Source: a virus (lineage: Duplodnaviria; Heunggongvirae; Uroviricota; Caudoviricetes). From it: 34,422 bases of DNA. Where the stretch lies: IMG/VR virus record IMGVR_UViG_2695420685_000022, positions 1 through 34,422 of that record; one strand, given 5' to 3'. Made by a program: the position numbers. Shown piece after piece: positions 15,001 to 21,000 of the stretch (position 1 is the first letter of the stretch; the number at the start of each line of letters is the position of its first letter).

Positions 15001-18000
15001 TTTATCGATCGCGCGCTGGCGATTGGTGTGCTGTCCTGATTTTGTGGAGAAAGTTGATGCGTGATATTCAGATAGTTCTTGAACGCTGGGGGGCATGGGC
15101 TGCAAGTGGTAACACCGGGGTGGACTATTCTCCGATCGCTGCCGGATTCAAAGGACTTTTACCATCTGCCACTAAACCACGTCCGGCCTGCTGCGATGAT
15201 GACGGACTTATCATTGAAAACTGTCTTGCTCGTCTGAAGCAGAAAAAACCTGAGGAGTATTCGCTTCTCATTGCTCATTATTTGTTGCGAATATCAAAAA
15301 GACAGATAGCCAGGACGAGAAAGAAAAGCGAAAAAGCAATACGAATTGAGATGCAGATAGCCGAAGGGTTTATTGACGGATGTTTGTCTGTGCTGGGGGT
15401 AAGACTGGAGATGGACGACTGGCTGCTAAAAAAGTAAAAAATGATTAGTGCGGTCCGCAAAAAGTATGTCAGTATGTTAAGAGTGGTTACTTCGCCCGCG
15501 AGCGGGTTTTTTTATGGCTGAAATCGGTCCAGTACAGTAAACGTGCTGGTGGCGGTGAATACCTGTCTTTCAGCTTGCTGGCTTTTTCGACAAGAGTTAT
15601 TGGTGTGTCACGTTAACCGAAAAAGGGAAAAAGACATGCTGAAACAGCAGGATATGACAGAAACCGCCAGAGTGGTGTTTAATGAATTAAGCGTCACCGA
15701 ACCGGCGACAGTCGGGGAGATTGCGCAGAATACTTACCTTTCACGCGAACGCTGTCAGTTAATACTGACCCAACTTGTTATGGCGGGTCTGGCAGACTAT
15801 CAGTTCGGTTGTTACAGACGCCTTCCGCAGTGAAGGCTTTTTTATTTGTGGTAAATGGGCGGCTGGTGGGTGTTAGGGGCACTCACCAGCCATCTGCTCA
15901 TGCGTTGTGGTCACAAGCAAACCTCAGGCCCATCTGCTTTGCGCAAAAGCGGTATGAGCCTATCAGAGAAGTGCTTATTGATCTATGGCTAATACTGTAA
16001 AAATATCCAGTTGTGAGTTAATCAACGCCGACTGCCTGGAATTTATCCGGTCGTTACCCGAAAATTCTGTTGACCTGATAGTCACGGACCCGCCGTACTT
16101 TAAAGTGAAGCCTGAGGGCTGGGATAACCAGTGGAAGGGCGACGATGATTACCTGAAGTGGCTGGACCAGTGTCTGGCGCAGTTCTGGCGGGTGCTGAAA
16201 CCTGCCGGAAGTCTTTACCTGTTCTGTGGTCATCGCCTGGCATCTGATATCGAAATCATGATGCGTGAACGCTTCAATGTGNGGAAATATCCTTTCAGTA
16301 AACTGTCAGTGCCGGATGCTCACCCGTGTCCGGCGCACGCACTCCACCTCACCCGTGGAGAACTCCTTAATTACCAACCTTAGCTTCGTTGGTTAGCTAT
16401 TAACGCGGGTATGTAATCATTCTGGCAATGCTTAATGCCGCTGCTTTTTCCAGCCTGGTGATATCCTGCTCCAGAGCGGACAGATTTTCAGCCTGCTTAG
16501 CCCTGGCTTCATTGGCCCATTTCAGGTCCTGCGCTGCCTTAATTTTCTGGTGCATCCACTCATAAAGTTCATCATCGGTATAGTCTGGCGCGATGATGAC
16601 GGGTTCTCGTTTCTGCATGTCGGCTCCTTGTGGTTAGCGTTGCCTGCTTTTAACCACGTCAGGCGAGGTGGTATCCTCTGAGGGGTCTGTTACTCGAGAG
16701 GAAATTGGTTATGAATACAATCAAGTTTTCTTGCCCAGAATGTGGCGGCGAAGTCTTTGACACATCCTTTAAACCGCATGGCTCTGACAGTTTCGCGGGA
16801 GCCATCTGCAAAAATTGTGGTCACCTTGTAACTGAAGATGAGTCCTCGCAGTTTGATGACGAAATCGTTGACAATATCTTCGGTGCACTCACCAGAGACT
16901 TTCTGAAGTAAAGGCGCATACCGCTTAGTTACCGCTCTGATAATTCTTACCTGTCCGGCAATGGCGCTGATATCAATATAAAGCGCCATCGCTGTTTCTT
17001 TGCTGATCCCTGGATGCCTTCCATTCTGATGTTTGACTTCGCCCACTGAGAAATCCTCTGTTTCCCCTTAACGCCGGGGTAGCGGAACAAAAAACCTGCT
17101 GCATAGTTAAACGTAATCCCCGCCGTCATGTTCATACGCCTCAGGCTGGCTACTTAACCCCTGACCACTGCCGGGTAACTCGAAGTATTGCCCTGCGTTC
17201 TGTGGGGCGGGGTGGGTTTATGGATACAATTTACAAATTAAAATTTAACCGGTCAACATGTTTATTATTAAATTTGTAATTGCGAGCTGTTGCATCAGTC
17301 CCAAAATGGGACTACTATACAGTTATGAAGATTATCTCAGTTAAAACACTCAGGGATTTTTGGGCGGAGAATCCTGATGCAGAACAACCGCTAAGGGCAT
17401 GGGTGGATGAGGCGGCAAAAGCTGACTGGAAAAGCCCAGCAGACATTAAGGCACAATACCGAACGGCCAGTATATTGAAAAACCGGCGCGTGGTATTCAA
17501 CATAAAAGGTAATCATTACCGTTTAATTGTTGCAATTGCGTATCAGCGAGGATGGGTATTTGTTAAATTCATCGGAAACCACAAGGAATACGATACTATT
17601 GATGCTGATACCATCGAACTGGAGTAAGCATGAACATCAAACCTATTCGTACAGAGCAAGATTATGAAGCCGCGTTGCGTGCTGTTGAACCCATGTTCGA
17701 CAATGAGCCCGAAATTGACACGCCTGAGGGGGATTTTTTTGAGGTGATGTGTTTGCTAATAGAGGAATATGAAAAAAAACATTATCCCATTGAGCCACCA
17801 TCCCCAATTGAAGCTATAAGATTTCGCATGGAACAGCAGGGGCTGACTGTGAAAGATTTGGAACCCGCAATTGGGAAAAAAAATCGGGTTTATGAGGTGT
17901 TGAATGGTACCAGAAGCCTTACGTTACCAATGATTCGCCGTCTTCATAATCAATTTGGTATCCCCCTGGAAAGCCTGGTTGGATTATAAAATCTGCTAGT

Positions 18001-21000
18001 CATTTGCCTGATGCTCGTTCCAGAAAAGGAATGCATCAGGCAGTTTTGTTTTTCTGCCGCAGTAACTCTTCAAGTTTCCGTTTATAGAAATCGCGTTTTT
18101 GCTCCATATCACGAATGATCTGCTCTGCGTCGCTTTGAGGTAACTCATCTAAAAGCGATATGATTTTTCGTTGTTGTTCTGTAAGTTGCGGTTGGTTGTC
18201 ATTACTGGATACAGCCATTTTATCGCCGAGAGTTTCTTCTTCCATAAAGAACCAATGGACGGGATGTTGTGAGAGCTCTGCTAATTTTTCCAGTTTATCC
18301 ATTCTTGGCATCACGCCTTTCAACCAACCTTGCACGGATTGGGGTTTTACACCAAGACGTCTTCCCAGCTCTGACTGGTTTATATTCAATTCCTGCAACA
18401 CCTGCTGAAGGCGTTTTACAAAGATCATCACCACCCCTCGTAAACTAGTTCCGCGATCCTACAGAAAAAATTGATAAGTGGCATTACAAATAGAAGTTGA
18501 AATTTAAATTTAAATTTGTAATTATCGGTGTCATCGTAAAGTTCGGAGGGAAACATGCAAAAAAGTACTCAAGTGAAAATCCTGTCAATAATGAGCCAAT
18601 CAGAATTAGGGCGTCGTCTTGGTAAAACACCGCAAACCATAAGTGGGTGGTTTAAAAAACGAGTGCCAGCGGAGGAGGTTATACCAGCATGTGAGGCGCT
18701 TGACTGGGGAGTAACTCCGCATGAATTGCGCCCTGATAAATACCCTAATCCAACCGATGGTTTACCTGTTGAGTATCAGGCTAACGCACAAGCAGCGGCG
18801 GGAGTTGATTCATGAAAATCAAGCATGAACACATCCGCATGGCGATGAATGTCTGGGCGCATCCGGACGGCGAAAAAGTGCCGGCTGCGAAAATTACCAA
18901 AGCGTATTTCGAGCTGGGAATGACGTTCCCTGAACTGTACGACGACAGCCATCCGGAAGCCCTGGCCCGTAATACACAGAAAATTTTCCGTTGGCTGGAT
19001 AAAGACACCCCTGATGCTGTTGAAAAAATTCAGGCTCTGTTACCGGCGATCGAAAAGGCAATGCCGCCTCTGCTGGTGGCCCGTATGCGCAGTCACAGCT
19101 CTGAGTATTACCGGGAGATTGTCGAACGGCGGGATCGGCTGGTGAAGGATGTCGACGATTTTGTTGCGTCAGCGGTTGTTTTGTATGACCAGATGAATCG
19201 CGGCGGCCCGGCAGGGAATGCTGTGGTGATGCACTAAAAGCACGGTGTTCGGGGGTTTTATGAGCAGCAAGCTTCATGGTCTTGTCTGGGAAGGGTGCGC
19301 CTTCACCGGCATGATCTTATCCAGGGTGGCGGTTATGGCCCGTCTTGCAGACTACAGCAATGACGAGGGTGTGTCATGGCCTGCCATTGAAACTATCCGG
19401 CGTCAGATCGGTGCAAGAAGTGAATCCACAGTGAAATCGGCTATTGCAGAACTGGCGAAAGAGGGCTGGCTGACGAAGGAAGAGCGTAAGGTCGGTGGGC
19501 GTAATGTAAGCAATATCTATCGGCTTAATGTGGAAAAACTCGAAGCAGCTGCGGCGGCGGCGCGTGAGTCATATAAACCGAAAAGAAAAATTAGCCCGGC
19601 AAAAAATGACCCGTTAACAGTTGACCCGTCAAATATTGCCCCCTCAACGGTTGACCCGTCAAATTTTGATGGATCAACTGTTGATAAAAAACTGCCGATT
19701 AGGGGGGCGATGATTGACCCCGATCCGTCAGTATTAAAACCTGATCCGTCAGATAAAAGATCTTCTTGTCCGGACGCTTCGCAACCGGACCCGCAGACGG
19801 CTGAACAGGATTTTTTAACCCGACACCCTGACGCGGTTGTGTTCAGTGCGAAAAAACGCCAGTGGGGAAGTCAGGAAGATTTGGTGTGCGCACAGTGGAT
19901 CTGGGGACGAATCGTGAGTCTTTACGAGCAGGCGGCCAGCTATGATGGCGAGATCACTAGACCGAAAGAACCCAACTGGACAGCATGGGCCAATGACGTT
20001 CGCACAATGCGGATGCTGGATGGCAGAACTCACAGACAAATTTGTGAAATGTTTGGGCGTCTCCAGCGGGATTCGTTCTGGGTAAAAAACATCATGAGTC
20101 CGGCAAAACTCCGGGAAAAATGGGATGAACTGGTTATCCGCCTGGGGCGTTCGCCTGCGCAGCGTTGCGTGAATCACATTTCTGAACCGGACACTGAAAT
20201 ACCGCCGGGATTCAGGGGGTGACGTGTCATGAAAAACATTGCGGCAGTTGGGGTTCTTGAACGTATTCGCAGACTTGCACCACAGGGGTCGGTTCCACCG
20301 TACCGGACGGTGGAGGAGTGGCGGGAATGGCAACTTGCTGAAGGACGAAAACGCAGCGAGGAGATTAACCGCCAGAATCGCCAGTTGCGGGTGGAAAAAA
20401 TCCTGAATCGTTCGGGCATCCAGCCTCTGCACAGCAAATGCTCGTTTGCAAATTATCAGGTGCAGAACGACGGGCAAAAATACGCGCTGAGCCAGGCCAA
20501 ATCCATAGCTGACGAACTGATGACCGGGTGCACGAATTTTGTGTTCAGCGGTAAAACCGGCACCGGGAAAAATCACCTTGCAGCGGCGATGGGCAACCGG
20601 CTGATGGTGAAGGGGCGCAGCGTGATTATCGTCACCGTGTCTGACGTCATGAGCGTGTTGCATGACAGCTACGACAACGGCAAATCCGGGGAAAAATTTT
20701 TACAGGAGCTTTGCGGGGTTGATTTGCTGGTCCTGGATGAAATAGGCGTTCAGCGGGAGACGAAAAACGAGCAGGTGGTATTGCACCAGATAATTGATCG
20801 CCGGACAGCATCACTGTGCAGTGTCGGGATGTTAACAAACCTGAATCATGCCGCAATGAGTACGCTTCTTGGTGAGAGGATTATGGACCGCATGACCATG
20901 AACGGTGGTCGATGGGTGACGTTTAACTGGGATAGCTGGCGTCCAAATGTCAGCAATATGAGGGTTGTGAAGTAATTTTGTCCGGAGGAAATTTTAATGG

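Follow-up and report, generated by a model that had tools for sequence, protein, structure and literature searches.

Is a toxin-antitoxin pair that lies beside a prophage repressor gene wired into the immunity switch of that prophage? The question is raised by a tailed-phage record (IMGVR_UViG_2695420685_000022; the whole stretch of 34,422 nucleotides is called the window here), in which an inverted repeat upstream of higB recurs between the repressor gene and a cro-like gene. The initial annotation read this repeat as part of the higBA promoter region and suggested that the repressor or Cro binds at higBA, or that HigA and the repressor share their specificity. Our comparison with related loci makes a different reading highly probable: the sequence beside higBA would be the left operator and early promoter of the prophage (OL/PL), its counterpart the right operator (OR), and higBA a separate cargo. 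The features discussed are collected in Table 1.

Table 1. Genes, operator sites and candidate control signals around higBA (window coordinates)
Feature	Position	Strand	Remarks
Conserved leader of the presumed PL transcript	17060..17221	-	outside the immunity-specific module
Candidate PL	17228..17256	-	-35 TTGACC (17256->17251), 17-nt spacer, -10 TAAATT (17233->17228)
Proposed OL, proximal site	17231..17239		TTACAAATT; overlaps -10 of PL
Proposed OL, distal site	17268..17281		TTAAATTTGTAATT; upstream of PL -35
Candidate higB promoter	17290..17318	+	-35 TTGCAT (17290-17295), -10 TACTAT (17313-17318)
Candidate HigA operator	17298-17312		GTCCCAAAATGGGAC; in the higB promoter spacer, between -35 and -10
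higB, RelE-like toxin	17325..17627	+	Pfam HigB_toxin PF09907, E = 5.7e-33
higA, helix-turn-helix antitoxin	17630..17989	+	Pfam HTH_3
Predicted intrinsic higBA terminator	18004..18054	+	hairpin and U-run; overlaps 3' end of repressor gene
Prophage repressor, 130 aa	18036..18428	-	N-terminal helix-turn-helix, C-terminal helical region; Pfam HTH_3
Proposed OR	18456..18525		sites 18483-18491 (ATTACAAAT), weaker 18495-18503, 18510-18523
Candidate PRM	18484->18456	-	ATGCCA-17-TAGGAT; assigned from conserved CTGTAGnAT block
Candidate PR			TTGAAA (18497) and TAATTA or AATTAT (18519-18525); consensus match
Cro-like (YdaS family) regulator	18555..18815	+	Pfam YdaS_toxin and HTH_3
YdaT family protein, CII analogue	18812..19237	+	Pfam YdaT_toxin

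Two promoter regions share a non-random motif

The initial annotation described two 9-bp inverted repeats with a common core and a common 13-mer, and all of these sequence statements proved correct. With both strands counted, the 34.4-kb window holds exactly four copies of the core TTACAAAT, arranged as two inverted pairs (17231/17272 and 18484/18514). On the higB side the arms are TTACAAATT and AATTTGTAA (17271-17279), with a centre-to-centre spacing of 41 bp; in the repressor-cro region they are ATTACAAAT and ATTTGTAAT (18514-18522), spaced by 30 bp. The 13-mer TAAATTTGTAATT is found in the whole window only at 17269 and 18511, and the exact match between the two regions extends to the 14-mer TTAAATTTGTAATT (17268-17281 and 18510-18523). 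As controls, we shuffled the two promoter regions (17219-17324 and 18435-18554) 5000 times with preservation of dinucleotides; a shared word of 13 nt or more was obtained with P = 0.001 and a shared 8-mer inverted in both regions with P = 0.011. Looser versions of the motif elsewhere in the window are single, and paired inverted copies are present at the two loci only. Thus the sharing of the motif is real and non-random.

The repeat upstream of higB brackets a candidate leftward promoter

The higB-side repeat brackets a sigma-70-type arrangement, TTGACC-17-TAAATT on the minus strand, which we regard as candidate PL (9 of 12 matches in the promoter scan). Transcription from it would start at about 17221 and read leftward, away from higB and toward ydfC and dicB. 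The spacer and -10 region of PL are almost identical to those of PR, and the distal OL site exactly matches the one over the PR -10. The 8-bp core of this distal site (17272-17279) has its centre about 50 bp ahead of the higB ATG. All promoters at this locus are consensus matches and thus candidates. The arrangement TTGAC[CTA]-17-TA[GA]A[TG]T recurs in six loci from five genera (TAGTCT in Serratia), and each of the five relatives with a PL retains the [CT]TACAAAT core of the proximal site. This arm coincides in part with the PL -10, and some of its conservation may reflect the promoter, not the operator.

The predicted transcript begins with a leader that contains the block AAGTAGCCAGCCyGAGGCGTAnGAACATGAnGGC, conserved in Sodalis and Arsenophonus and partly in Serratia; 17060-17221 gave no match to Rfam. 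Two observations count against the PL reading: the presumed transcription unit contains an annotated gene on the plus strand (ECs_2282 family, 16705-16911), and the scaffold junction at 16282 truncates the left operon in the window.

The left flank, including the leader, is common to phages of other immunity types as far as about 17218 and no further, and the shared right flank resumes at about 18830; the repeat is therefore situated at the left border of immunity-specific DNA. In three such phages the same slot holds different repeats, ATCAAAACAT in one and AATGTACT in two, and in each case they recur in the phage's own cI-cro spacer.

Related loci without higBA carry the same sites. The repressor homologs of Sodalis (71% identical) and Arsenophonus (52%) are not accompanied by higBA, and the same PL with flanking sites is found downstream of the repressor, followed by the same leader; in Arsenophonus it reads AATTACAAATT ... 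TTGACA-17-TAGATT with AATTTGTAGATT, AATTACAAATT being the distal site. In Serratia (repressor homolog 58% identical, 48% in the multiple alignment) the cargo is a different one and PL is the same. A motif search across related prophages, which the initial annotation had recommended, recovers these sites in two relatives that lack higBA. The OL and OR sites of all relatives fit one consensus and have been preserved in five genera amid variable surrounding bases. In the Salmonella relative L055 the OL arms (TCTACAA[A/T]T) and the OR sites (TTGCAAAT, TTGCAATT and TTGCAGTG) agree only degenerately, so that the consensus is a loose one, which counts against the OL reading. A further point against it is that in two other Salmonella relatives with other cargo (L057 and L059), no PL/OL-like site was found within 4 kb downstream of the repressor.

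Sequence comparison thus gives the positions of the sites, their conservation, the module boundaries and the occurrence of OL/PL without higBA. Since the repeat lies outside the DNA shared with plasmids (see below), surrounds a candidate leftward promoter and is present without higBA, it most likely represents OL/PL of the prophage.

The repressor-cro spacer as the probable right operator

The repressor and cro genes are divergent and 126 bp apart, and the sites in their spacer overlap the candidate promoters PRM and PR: 18483-18491 overlaps the -35 of PRM, and 18510-18523 covers the -10 of PR. This layout is kept in seven homologous loci. The repressor matches HTH_3 and HTH_26 only, and its helix-turn-helix, QSELGRRLGVKPQSVQGWL, is essentially invariant in eight homologs (48-89% identity). 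A C-terminal S24 peptidase (autocleavage) domain was not found in its 130 aa in the Pfam search, and we rejected a lambda CI- or LexA-type cleavable repressor because this domain is absent. The identity of the window repressor with the CI-type repressors of Gifsy-1, Gifsy-2, SPN3UB, Tritos and DicA-annotated phages ranges from 26 to 40%, and its nearest relatives among phages are short repressors of the Gifsy and DicA types. The Cro-like regulator has a helix-turn-helix that is invariant in relatives (QSELGRRLGKxPQTIxGWF) and 58% identical to that of the repressor over 26 aa (E = 2e-9). For the CP-933P homolog of the YdaT family protein a CII-like function has been shown (PMC8630535, PMC9986795). 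The motif is shared between OL and OR, we propose, because the same repressor, and probably Cro too, binds to both; the sites next to higBA most likely mark where these two proteins would bind.

higBA as a probable cassette with its own predicted control elements

A HigB_toxin gene (HigB-family toxin in RefSeq) lies just upstream of a helix-turn-helix antitoxin gene, as in type II HigBA systems, and HigA is a relative of E. coli K-12 HigA, whose structure is solved (PDB 5IFG and 5YCL, E = 3e-9); domains and gene order thus point to a toxin/antitoxin pair. Homology in 221 plasmid records starts at window positions 17290-17322 and ends at about 17985, and the junction of phage and cassette DNA is tight (~17284-17289). 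The candidate higB promoter is kept in the plasmid higBA copies of Erwinia, a P1-like E. coli plasmid, Plesiomonas and Salmonella. Its spacer holds a palindrome that occurs once in the window and is conserved in six homologous loci, four of them plasmids; the consensus is TCCCr-N3-yGGGA. The four plasmid copies have two such palindromes flanking the -35 and no TTACAAAT; the prophage copies keep the promoter-proximal one only (17299-17311). A Shine-Dalgarno sequence is absent from higB, and its ATG follows the -10 by 6-7 nt in the window and in most homologs, the P1-like plasmid copy excepted; higB is probably translated from a leaderless mRNA, with the ATG as the probable transcription start.

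The initial annotation placed higBA convergent with the repressor gene and behind a hairpin terminator, and we found this hairpin at 18004-18043 (-23.5 kcal/mol, z = -3.46), followed by GUUUUGUUUUU and overlapping the repressor stop codon. A simple terminator scan missed it, probably due to an internal bulge in the stem. Most likely, higBA is a mobile cargo cassette that was inserted beside OL and has a separate operator of its own.

Alternative explanations for the repeat

Of the claim that the repeat ties higBA to immunity, one part stands, namely a shared motif that probably consists of repressor/Cro sites; that the repeat is a feature of the higBA promoter is not supported, given its position outside the plasmid-shared DNA, around a candidate leftward promoter, and its occurrence without higBA. 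A chance likeness of two AT-rich intergenic regions with no common binding protein might be considered, as both are 66-70% A+T, the core count (4 versus 1.64 expected) reaches four or more in 7 of 100 whole-window shuffles, and the 13-mer is not rare in the window when up to two mismatches are permitted. However, the long shared word is not reproduced so easily by shuffling, the sites are kept across genera amid variable bases, and the exact core, which the initial annotation feared to be generic AT-rich sequence, is present at four places only, all in inverted pairs at promoters; chance is therefore a most improbable explanation. It also seems very unlikely that the repeat is an autoregulatory operator of HigA/HigBA and owes its likeness to OR to a similar DNA specificity of HigA and the repressor. 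The repeat does lie upstream of higB, antitoxin operators are usually inverted repeats, and an ATTTGT...ACAAAT pair precedes a distant HigB homolog of 40% identity (L049 and L050), but this match covers only 6 bp of AT-rich DNA in an unrelated context. Moreover, close plasmid copies of higBA (Erwinia HigA is 79% identical) lack the repeat and carry the two TCCCr-N3-yGGGA palindromes instead, one of which is retained in the window, whereas Sodalis and Arsenophonus have the repeat without higBA. The suggested common specificity of HigA and the repressor finds no support either: their DNA-binding regions do not align (E = 0.52), and higBA has its own palindrome.

The OL/PL reading leaves room for an addition, in which repressor or Cro at the distal OL site would also regulate the divergent higB promoter, so that higBA expression would track the lysogenic or lytic state. 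The distal site stops 8 bp before the higB -35. The four plasmid homologs have a second HigA palindrome some 31 bp ahead of the promoter-proximal one, and in three of these homologs its centre is at about -51 relative to the ATG; the three prophage copies (the window, L067 and L055) have all lost it and have the OL distal site there instead, within ~1 bp of the same position, next to the tight phage/cassette junction. All E. coli genomes and viral contigs examined showed higBA linked to this repressor type: among 5426 complete E. coli genomes this higBA allele is present in 148 and this repressor-cro allele in 149 (at least 80% coverage of each in 148), the 22 viral contigs in which the repressor was found all include higB, and the set stays together in two E. 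coli copies that have diverged and lie among different genes; this linkage also counts in favour of the OL/PL reading. The two are linked in a Salmonella relative with 74% identity as well. In CP-933P, the CI-like repressor controls a toxin-antitoxin pair (PMC8630535). Against this, the distal site already exists in relatives without higBA, and its position may reflect only where the cassette landed; the linkage may be mere proximity inside a 1.6-kb module; and higBA retains a complete promoter, HigA operator and terminator of its own. Repressor control of higBA is thus possible, but we consider such dual use of the distal site rather unlikely. That the cassette lost its upstream HigA operator on entering the prophage, with the distal OL site now in its place and higBA co-regulated by the repressor and, in lytic growth, by Cro, likewise appears unlikely.

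Proposed architecture and comparison with known systems

We propose that this region is the immunity module of a Qin/Rac-like lambdoid E. coli prophage, in the order OL/PL, higB, higA, terminator, repressor (leftward), OR with PRM and PR, cro (ydaS-like) and ydaT. Protein binding, promoter activity and transcription starts are the inferred parts of this scheme. The left-operator pair would flank PL, the driver of the ydfC-dicB side, and the inverted repeat in the repressor-cro spacer would be OR; the same repressor, and probably Cro, would bind both through (T)T[A/G]CA[A/G]AT. In a lysogen the repressor may occupy both operators and silence PL and PR, and its C-terminal helical region could bridge sites. 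higBA would have entered a cargo slot bounded by OL and the repressor 3' end, with its own promoter, its own HigA operator (TCCCAAAATGGGA) and termination before the repressor gene.

The lambda immunity region, a textbook case also summarised in PMC8630535, comprises OL/PL, rexB, rexA, cI, OR with PRM and PR, cro and cII. The window resembles it in the divergent repressor and cro genes around a multi-site operator, in a second operator of the same motif over a leftward promoter beyond the repressor 3' end, in non-essential cargo between repressor gene and OL, and in immunity-specific DNA whose mosaic boundaries fall at OL and behind cro. By analogy, one motif at OL and OR is the normal, expected lambdoid design. 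In contrast to lambda, the repressor here is a 130-aa helix-turn-helix protein without a LexA-like cleavage domain, the sites are unlike the 17-bp lambda operators, OL has two sites 41 bp apart instead of three adjacent ones, and the cargo would be read toward the repressor gene from its own promoter and not from PRM. Like Qin dicA-dicC of E. coli K-12 and Gifsy, the window has a short, helix-turn-helix-only repressor (32% identical to those of Gifsy-1 and Gifsy-2; DicA-annotated in Sodalis), and it shares with Qin the leftward genes ydfA, ydfB, ydfC, dicF and dicB; the helix-turn-helix sequence and operator motif differ, and Qin has no higBA. DicA represses the dicB operon promoter, and Gifsy repressors are reportedly inactivated by antirepressors. 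With E. coli K-12-type HigBA (PF09907; PDB 5IFG) the cassette shares domain content and toxin-first gene order, and with HigBA-type autoregulation the palindromic candidate operator within the promoter; unlike the plasmid copies, it keeps one of two palindromes, and a proposed phage operator site takes the place of the upstream one.

The closest precedent is paaR2-paaA2-parE2 of CP-933P (E. coli O157:H7), where PaaR2 and YdaS were both shown to repress PL, whose operators match OR (Jurenas et al. 2021, PMC8630535). Both are lambdoid prophages with a YdaS-like Cro, a YdaT-like CII and a type II toxin-antitoxin pair between a CI-like repressor and PL; in the window, higBA (17325-17989) sits between OL (17231-17281) and the repressor gene. 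In Salmonella, moreover, a PaaA2-family gene follows a homolog of the window repressor (72% identity). The two differ in toxin family (ParE there, HigB/RelE here) and operator motif (GTTTAGTAA-type repeats there, TTACAAAT here). Furthermore, the CP-933P pair is co-transcribed with the repressor, which is its regulator, whereas higBA is convergent: co-transcription with the repressor from PRM was not found for higBA, which lies on the opposite strand with its own promoter and a terminator in between. If repressor control of higBA were true, higBA output would report the lysogenic versus lytic state of the immunity switch, and the pair could stabilise the immunity module or abort superinfection. 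It would then be a second toxin-antitoxin pair wired into a lambdoid switch after that of CP-933P, and by a different mechanism.

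Two inverted repeats with a common motif

An E. coli chromosome matches the immunity segment of the window at 100% identity; the segment is part of a lambdoid prophage, which in that strain adjoins yccA. Genes and repeats follow in the order dicB, ydfC, a small zinc-ribbon gene, the first repeat, higB, higA and, on the opposite strand, a gene for a 130-aa helix-turn-helix repressor, then the second repeat and, rightward of it, a YdaS-family Cro-like gene, a YdaT-family (CII-like) gene and O/P-like replication genes. The window was assembled as a scaffold of contigs, with a single N at 16282 and runs of 11 N at 28674-28684 and 30581-30591. 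The stretch 15600-17300 is contiguous in no complete E. coli genome, and homology to the immunity segment begins at 16283, directly after the scaffold N; thus the left early operon is cut off in the window, and the join that places late-region genes of a prophage (DUF968, DUF1133-like, methyltransferase) upstream is artificial.

Both repeats lie within one sequence segment of this scaffold and share the core 8-mer TTACAAAT, which has four copies on the two strands of the 34,422-base window, solely at the four repeat arms. The longest identical stretch common to both regions is TTAAATTTGTAATT, at 17268 and 18510, and a common word of at least 13 nt between the two promoter regions has a probability of 0.001 (5000 dinucleotide-preserving shuffles). 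The initial annotation had described both repeats correctly, i.e. their positions, their core and an identical word, which is in fact a 14-mer. Looser versions of the motif are single and dispersed across the window, and inverted pairs are confined to the two loci. The hairpin claimed between higA and the repressor gene proved real as well: direct folding gave -23.5 kcal/mol (z = -3.5) with a U-run thereafter, which is how the higBA terminator was found, a simple scan for terminators in 16600-18900 having returned none. A reading of each site as a small palindrome (AATT-N3-AATT) for one dimer was considered and gains no support from the half-site spacing, which is too short.

Features of the immunity region (window positions)
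Feature	Position	Strand	Sequence or remark
Overlapping ORF, 118 aa	16690-17046	-	
Overlapping ORF, 68 aa	16705-16911	+	
PL leader	17060-17221	-	contains the block AAGTAGCCAGCCyGAGGCGTAnGAACATGAnGGC; Sodalis L061 1365-1520, Arsenophonus L069 4027-4180
Candidate PL promoter	17256->17228	-	TTGACC-17-TAAATT; promoter scan
Repeat arm upstream of higB	17231-17239		TTACAAATT
Repeat arm upstream of higB	17271-17279		AATTTGTAA
Phage/cassette junction	~17284-17289		
Promoter-proximal higBA palindrome	17299-17311		
higB -10 to ATG	17313-17327		-10 TACTAT
higB	17325-17627	+	
higA	17630-17989	+	
Repressor gene	18036-18428	-	
Candidate PRM promoter	18484->18456		ATGCCA-17-TAGGAT
Repeat arm, repressor-cro spacer	18483-18491		ATTACAAAT
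Repeat arm, repressor-cro spacer	18514-18522		ATTTGTAAT
Cro-like gene	18555-18815	+	

The upstream repeat as the probable left operator of the phage

In phages with other repressors the left flank is held in common only to about 17218 and the right flank again from about 18830. Three of them (vB_EcoS-640R1, Tritos and vB_EcoS-666R9) carry phage-specific DNA immediately to the right of the common GGGGCGGGGTGGGT block. Since the repeats in this slot recur in the phage's own cI-cro spacer (ATCAAAACAT in one phage, AATGTACT in two), the slot would be the home of OL and PL, the left operator and leftward early promoter, in this phage group. The candidate PL of the window points away from higB, into a conserved leader; of the two arms of the first repeat, one overlaps the -10 and the other is situated upstream of the -35. 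From the spacer through the -10, GGTTAAATTTTAATTTG-TAAATT is almost identical to the corresponding stretch of the cro promoter, TTTAAATTTAAATTTG-TAATTA, so that PL and PR appear alike in build, as is also reported of CP-933P (PMC8630535).

We compared repressor homologs of 48-89% identity. In Sodalis, Arsenophonus and Serratia a PL-type promoter lies downstream of the repressor gene and any cargo, with similar flanking sites and then the same leader block; the OL/PL of Arsenophonus reads AATTACAAATT ... TTGACA-17-TAGATT, preceded by AATTTG. Two of these loci are without cargo. As PL and its sites are kept in all three, the repeat is a phage feature older than higBA. The Salmonella loci L057-L060, with repressors 71-72% identical and a matching OR, have PLD-family or PaaA2-family cargo. 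The 4 kb downstream of their repressor genes showed neither a PL/OL-like site nor the conserved leader, and they were therefore excluded from the OL comparison; either their OL lies further off or these prophages are rearranged.

Repressor relatives and their cargo
Locus	Host	Repressor identity	Cargo
L067, L068	E. coli	89%	higBA, between repressor and OL
L055	Salmonella	74%	higBA, between repressor and OL
L057	S. diarizonae	71%	PLD-family gene (424-aa PLDc_2 protein)
L059	Salmonella	72%	PaaA2-family antitoxin gene
L070	Serratia	58% (48% in multiple alignment)	two small ORFs
L061	Sodalis	71%	none
L069	Arsenophonus	52%	none

Judged by sequence, the first repeat is most likely the OL/PL of the phage, rather than an operator of higBA. 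It had been taken as a sign that the higBA promoter is wired into the immunity circuit; what holds of this is that predicted sites for phage regulators adjoin higBA, but these sites are OL/PL and not the higBA operator.

The leader block is kept in E. coli, Sodalis, Arsenophonus and partly Serratia, and also in phages of unrelated immunity types. Its consensus fold over eight loci reaches only -5 kcal/mol with no convincing structure, and Rfam gave no match in 16300-18900 (E up to 1); calling it a nut- or put-like RNA was therefore dropped, and its role may be antitermination, as a nut- or put-like element, or a signal in translation. Just downstream of PL two ORFs overlap on opposite strands. 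The one on the plus strand is annotated in RefSeq as the zinc-ribbon protein ECs_2282, and the one on the minus strand is annotated in the vB_EcoS-640R1 record and would come first among the genes of the PL transcript.

higBA as a separate cassette

The higB product belongs to PF09907 (E = 5.7e-33). DNA homology to plasmids (221 records) starts at window positions 17290-17322 and ends at about 17985, never including the repeat. We examined four plasmid copies of higBA, from an Erwinia IncP plasmid, a P1-like E. coli plasmid, Plesiomonas and Salmonella (L065, L072, L073 and L074). All four contain two TCCCr-N3-yGGGA palindromes about 31 bp apart, and none contains TTACAAAT. Three of them have conserved spacing, with a common promoter (TTGC[AC]T-17-TA[CAT]TAT) and palindromes placed about 57 and 26 nt before the ATG. 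In the P1-like copy the ATG is displaced 18 nt downstream, and the -10 and the two palindromes (75 and 44 nt before the ATG) are retained. The window retains the promoter-proximal palindrome alone, in its single occurrence there, and so do the other two prophage copies of higBA; aligned with the plasmid copies over 17268-17311, the phage OL site occupies the place of the lost upstream palindrome. higBA forms a distinct cassette that carries a candidate operator of its own.

HigA is related to the solved HigA of K-12 and gives no alignment with the repressor in the DNA-binding region; the proposal that the two share specificity is for this reason unsupported. Our literature search for a published operator of K-12-type HigA, or for higBA in lambdoid immunity regions, returned nothing directly relevant. 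More distant HigB homologs (L049-L054, viral contigs, 37-40% identical) were set aside as uninformative, their upstream repeats being unrelated. The P1-like phage D6 (L064 2001-2360) encodes a HigA 93% identical to that of the window, which sits behind a different RelE/HigA pair and lacks its HigB partner. A Shine-Dalgarno sequence is missing from higB, and 6-7 nt separate the -10 from the ATG in the window and most homologs, the plasmid copies from Erwinia, Plesiomonas and Salmonella among them; the higB mRNA is therefore probably leaderless, the ATG being the transcription start too.

Repressor, Cro-like protein and the proposed switch

The repressor is without a cleavage domain and groups with short DicA and Gifsy-type repressors. 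Its helix-turn-helix, QSELGRRLGVKPQSVQGWL, is essentially invariant across eight homologs. The Cro-like proteins carry QSELGRRLGKxPQTIxGWF, and their helix-turn-helix is 58% identical to that of the repressor over 26 residues (E = 2e-9); such likeness between repressor and Cro is the usual sign that the same operators are read. In all relatives the sites of OL and OR conform to the loose consensus (T/C)T(A/G)CA(A/G)(A/T)T, and unlike this looser agreement all four strong sites of the window are identical. A search of solved structures with the repressor gave a weak helix-turn-helix match alone (2KPJ, E = 5e-4). Among the isolated phages of the phage collection this repressor type is absent (best match 39.6% identical).

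From the positions and conservation of the sites we infer the following binding steps. In the lysogen, the repressor would shut PR from OR and PL from OL, and it probably autoregulates the candidate PRM, an assignment that comes from our reading of a block conserved in relatives. The distance between the two strong sites, 30 bp at OR and 41 bp at OL, is near a whole number of helical turns; this spacing and the helical C-terminal region of the repressor would permit cooperative or looping contacts, by analogy with lambda CI and PaaR2. During lytic growth Cro would take the same sites. higBA would be expressed from its own promoter, with the TCCCA palindrome as the site of repression by HigA or the HigBA complex, and its transcription would end before the repressor gene.

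Could the repressor or Cro influence higB transcription through the distal OL site? Such an influence would be geometrically plausible, as this site (17268-17281) stops 8 bp short of the higB -35 and has its centre about 50 bp before the ATG. Those plasmid copies whose promoter and ATG are spaced alike have the centre of their second HigA operator at about -51; the place of the operator that the cassette lost is thus taken by a phage operator, and phage DNA gives way to cassette DNA over a narrow junction. However, the distal OL site predates the arrival of higBA, and the arrangement may merely record the insertion point; we regard an influence on higB as rather unlikely.

Linkage and comparison with known systems

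The higBA allele is found in 148 and the repressor-cro allele in 149 of 5426 complete E. coli genomes, with each at a coverage of at least 80% in 148; strains with this immunity type include O26, O103, O45 and O111. All 22 viral contigs with the repressor also have higB. Two diverged E. coli copies keep OL, higBA, repressor, OR and cro together despite other flanks (ydfA and ydfB on the left, another YdaT and other replication genes on the right). This fits a set that moves as one immunity cassette, and is by itself no proof of regulatory coupling.

The window has the same design as lambda (OL/PL, cargo, cI, OR, cro, cII-like gene), in which rexAB holds a position comparable to the variable-cargo slot of these relatives. 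The closest published case is CP-933P, where the CI-like PaaR2 and a PL with operators matching OR flank paaA2-parE2, and where PL is repressed by PaaR2 as well as YdaS (PMC8630535). By comparison, the toxin-antitoxin genes of the window are convergent with the repressor gene and have their own promoter, candidate operator and terminator, the toxin is HigB/RelE-like and not ParE, and the operator motif is different. The immunity module of the window is thus an uncharacterised example of an already known design.

Between cI and N, Stx phages with H19-B-type immunity (L066, Stx2a phage WGPS9, 2693-3633) have a HigA-like gene (43% identical) that forms part of a fused 218-aa regulator and follows a 95-aa ORF. 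With such a gene in these phages too, toxin-antitoxin or defence cargo in the repressor-OL slot appears recurrent.

Taken together, the seeming cross-wiring of a toxin-antitoxin module with a phage switch becomes plain annotation (OL/PL, OR and a cargo cassette), and candidate operators with the core T[A/G]CA[A/G]AT, together with promoters, can now be proposed for an uncharacterised immunity type. Relatives differ in what lies between repressor and OL (higBA, a PLD-family protein, a PaaA2-family gene, two small ORFs or no cargo), and this slot appears to be a hotspot for accessory, possibly defence, genes.
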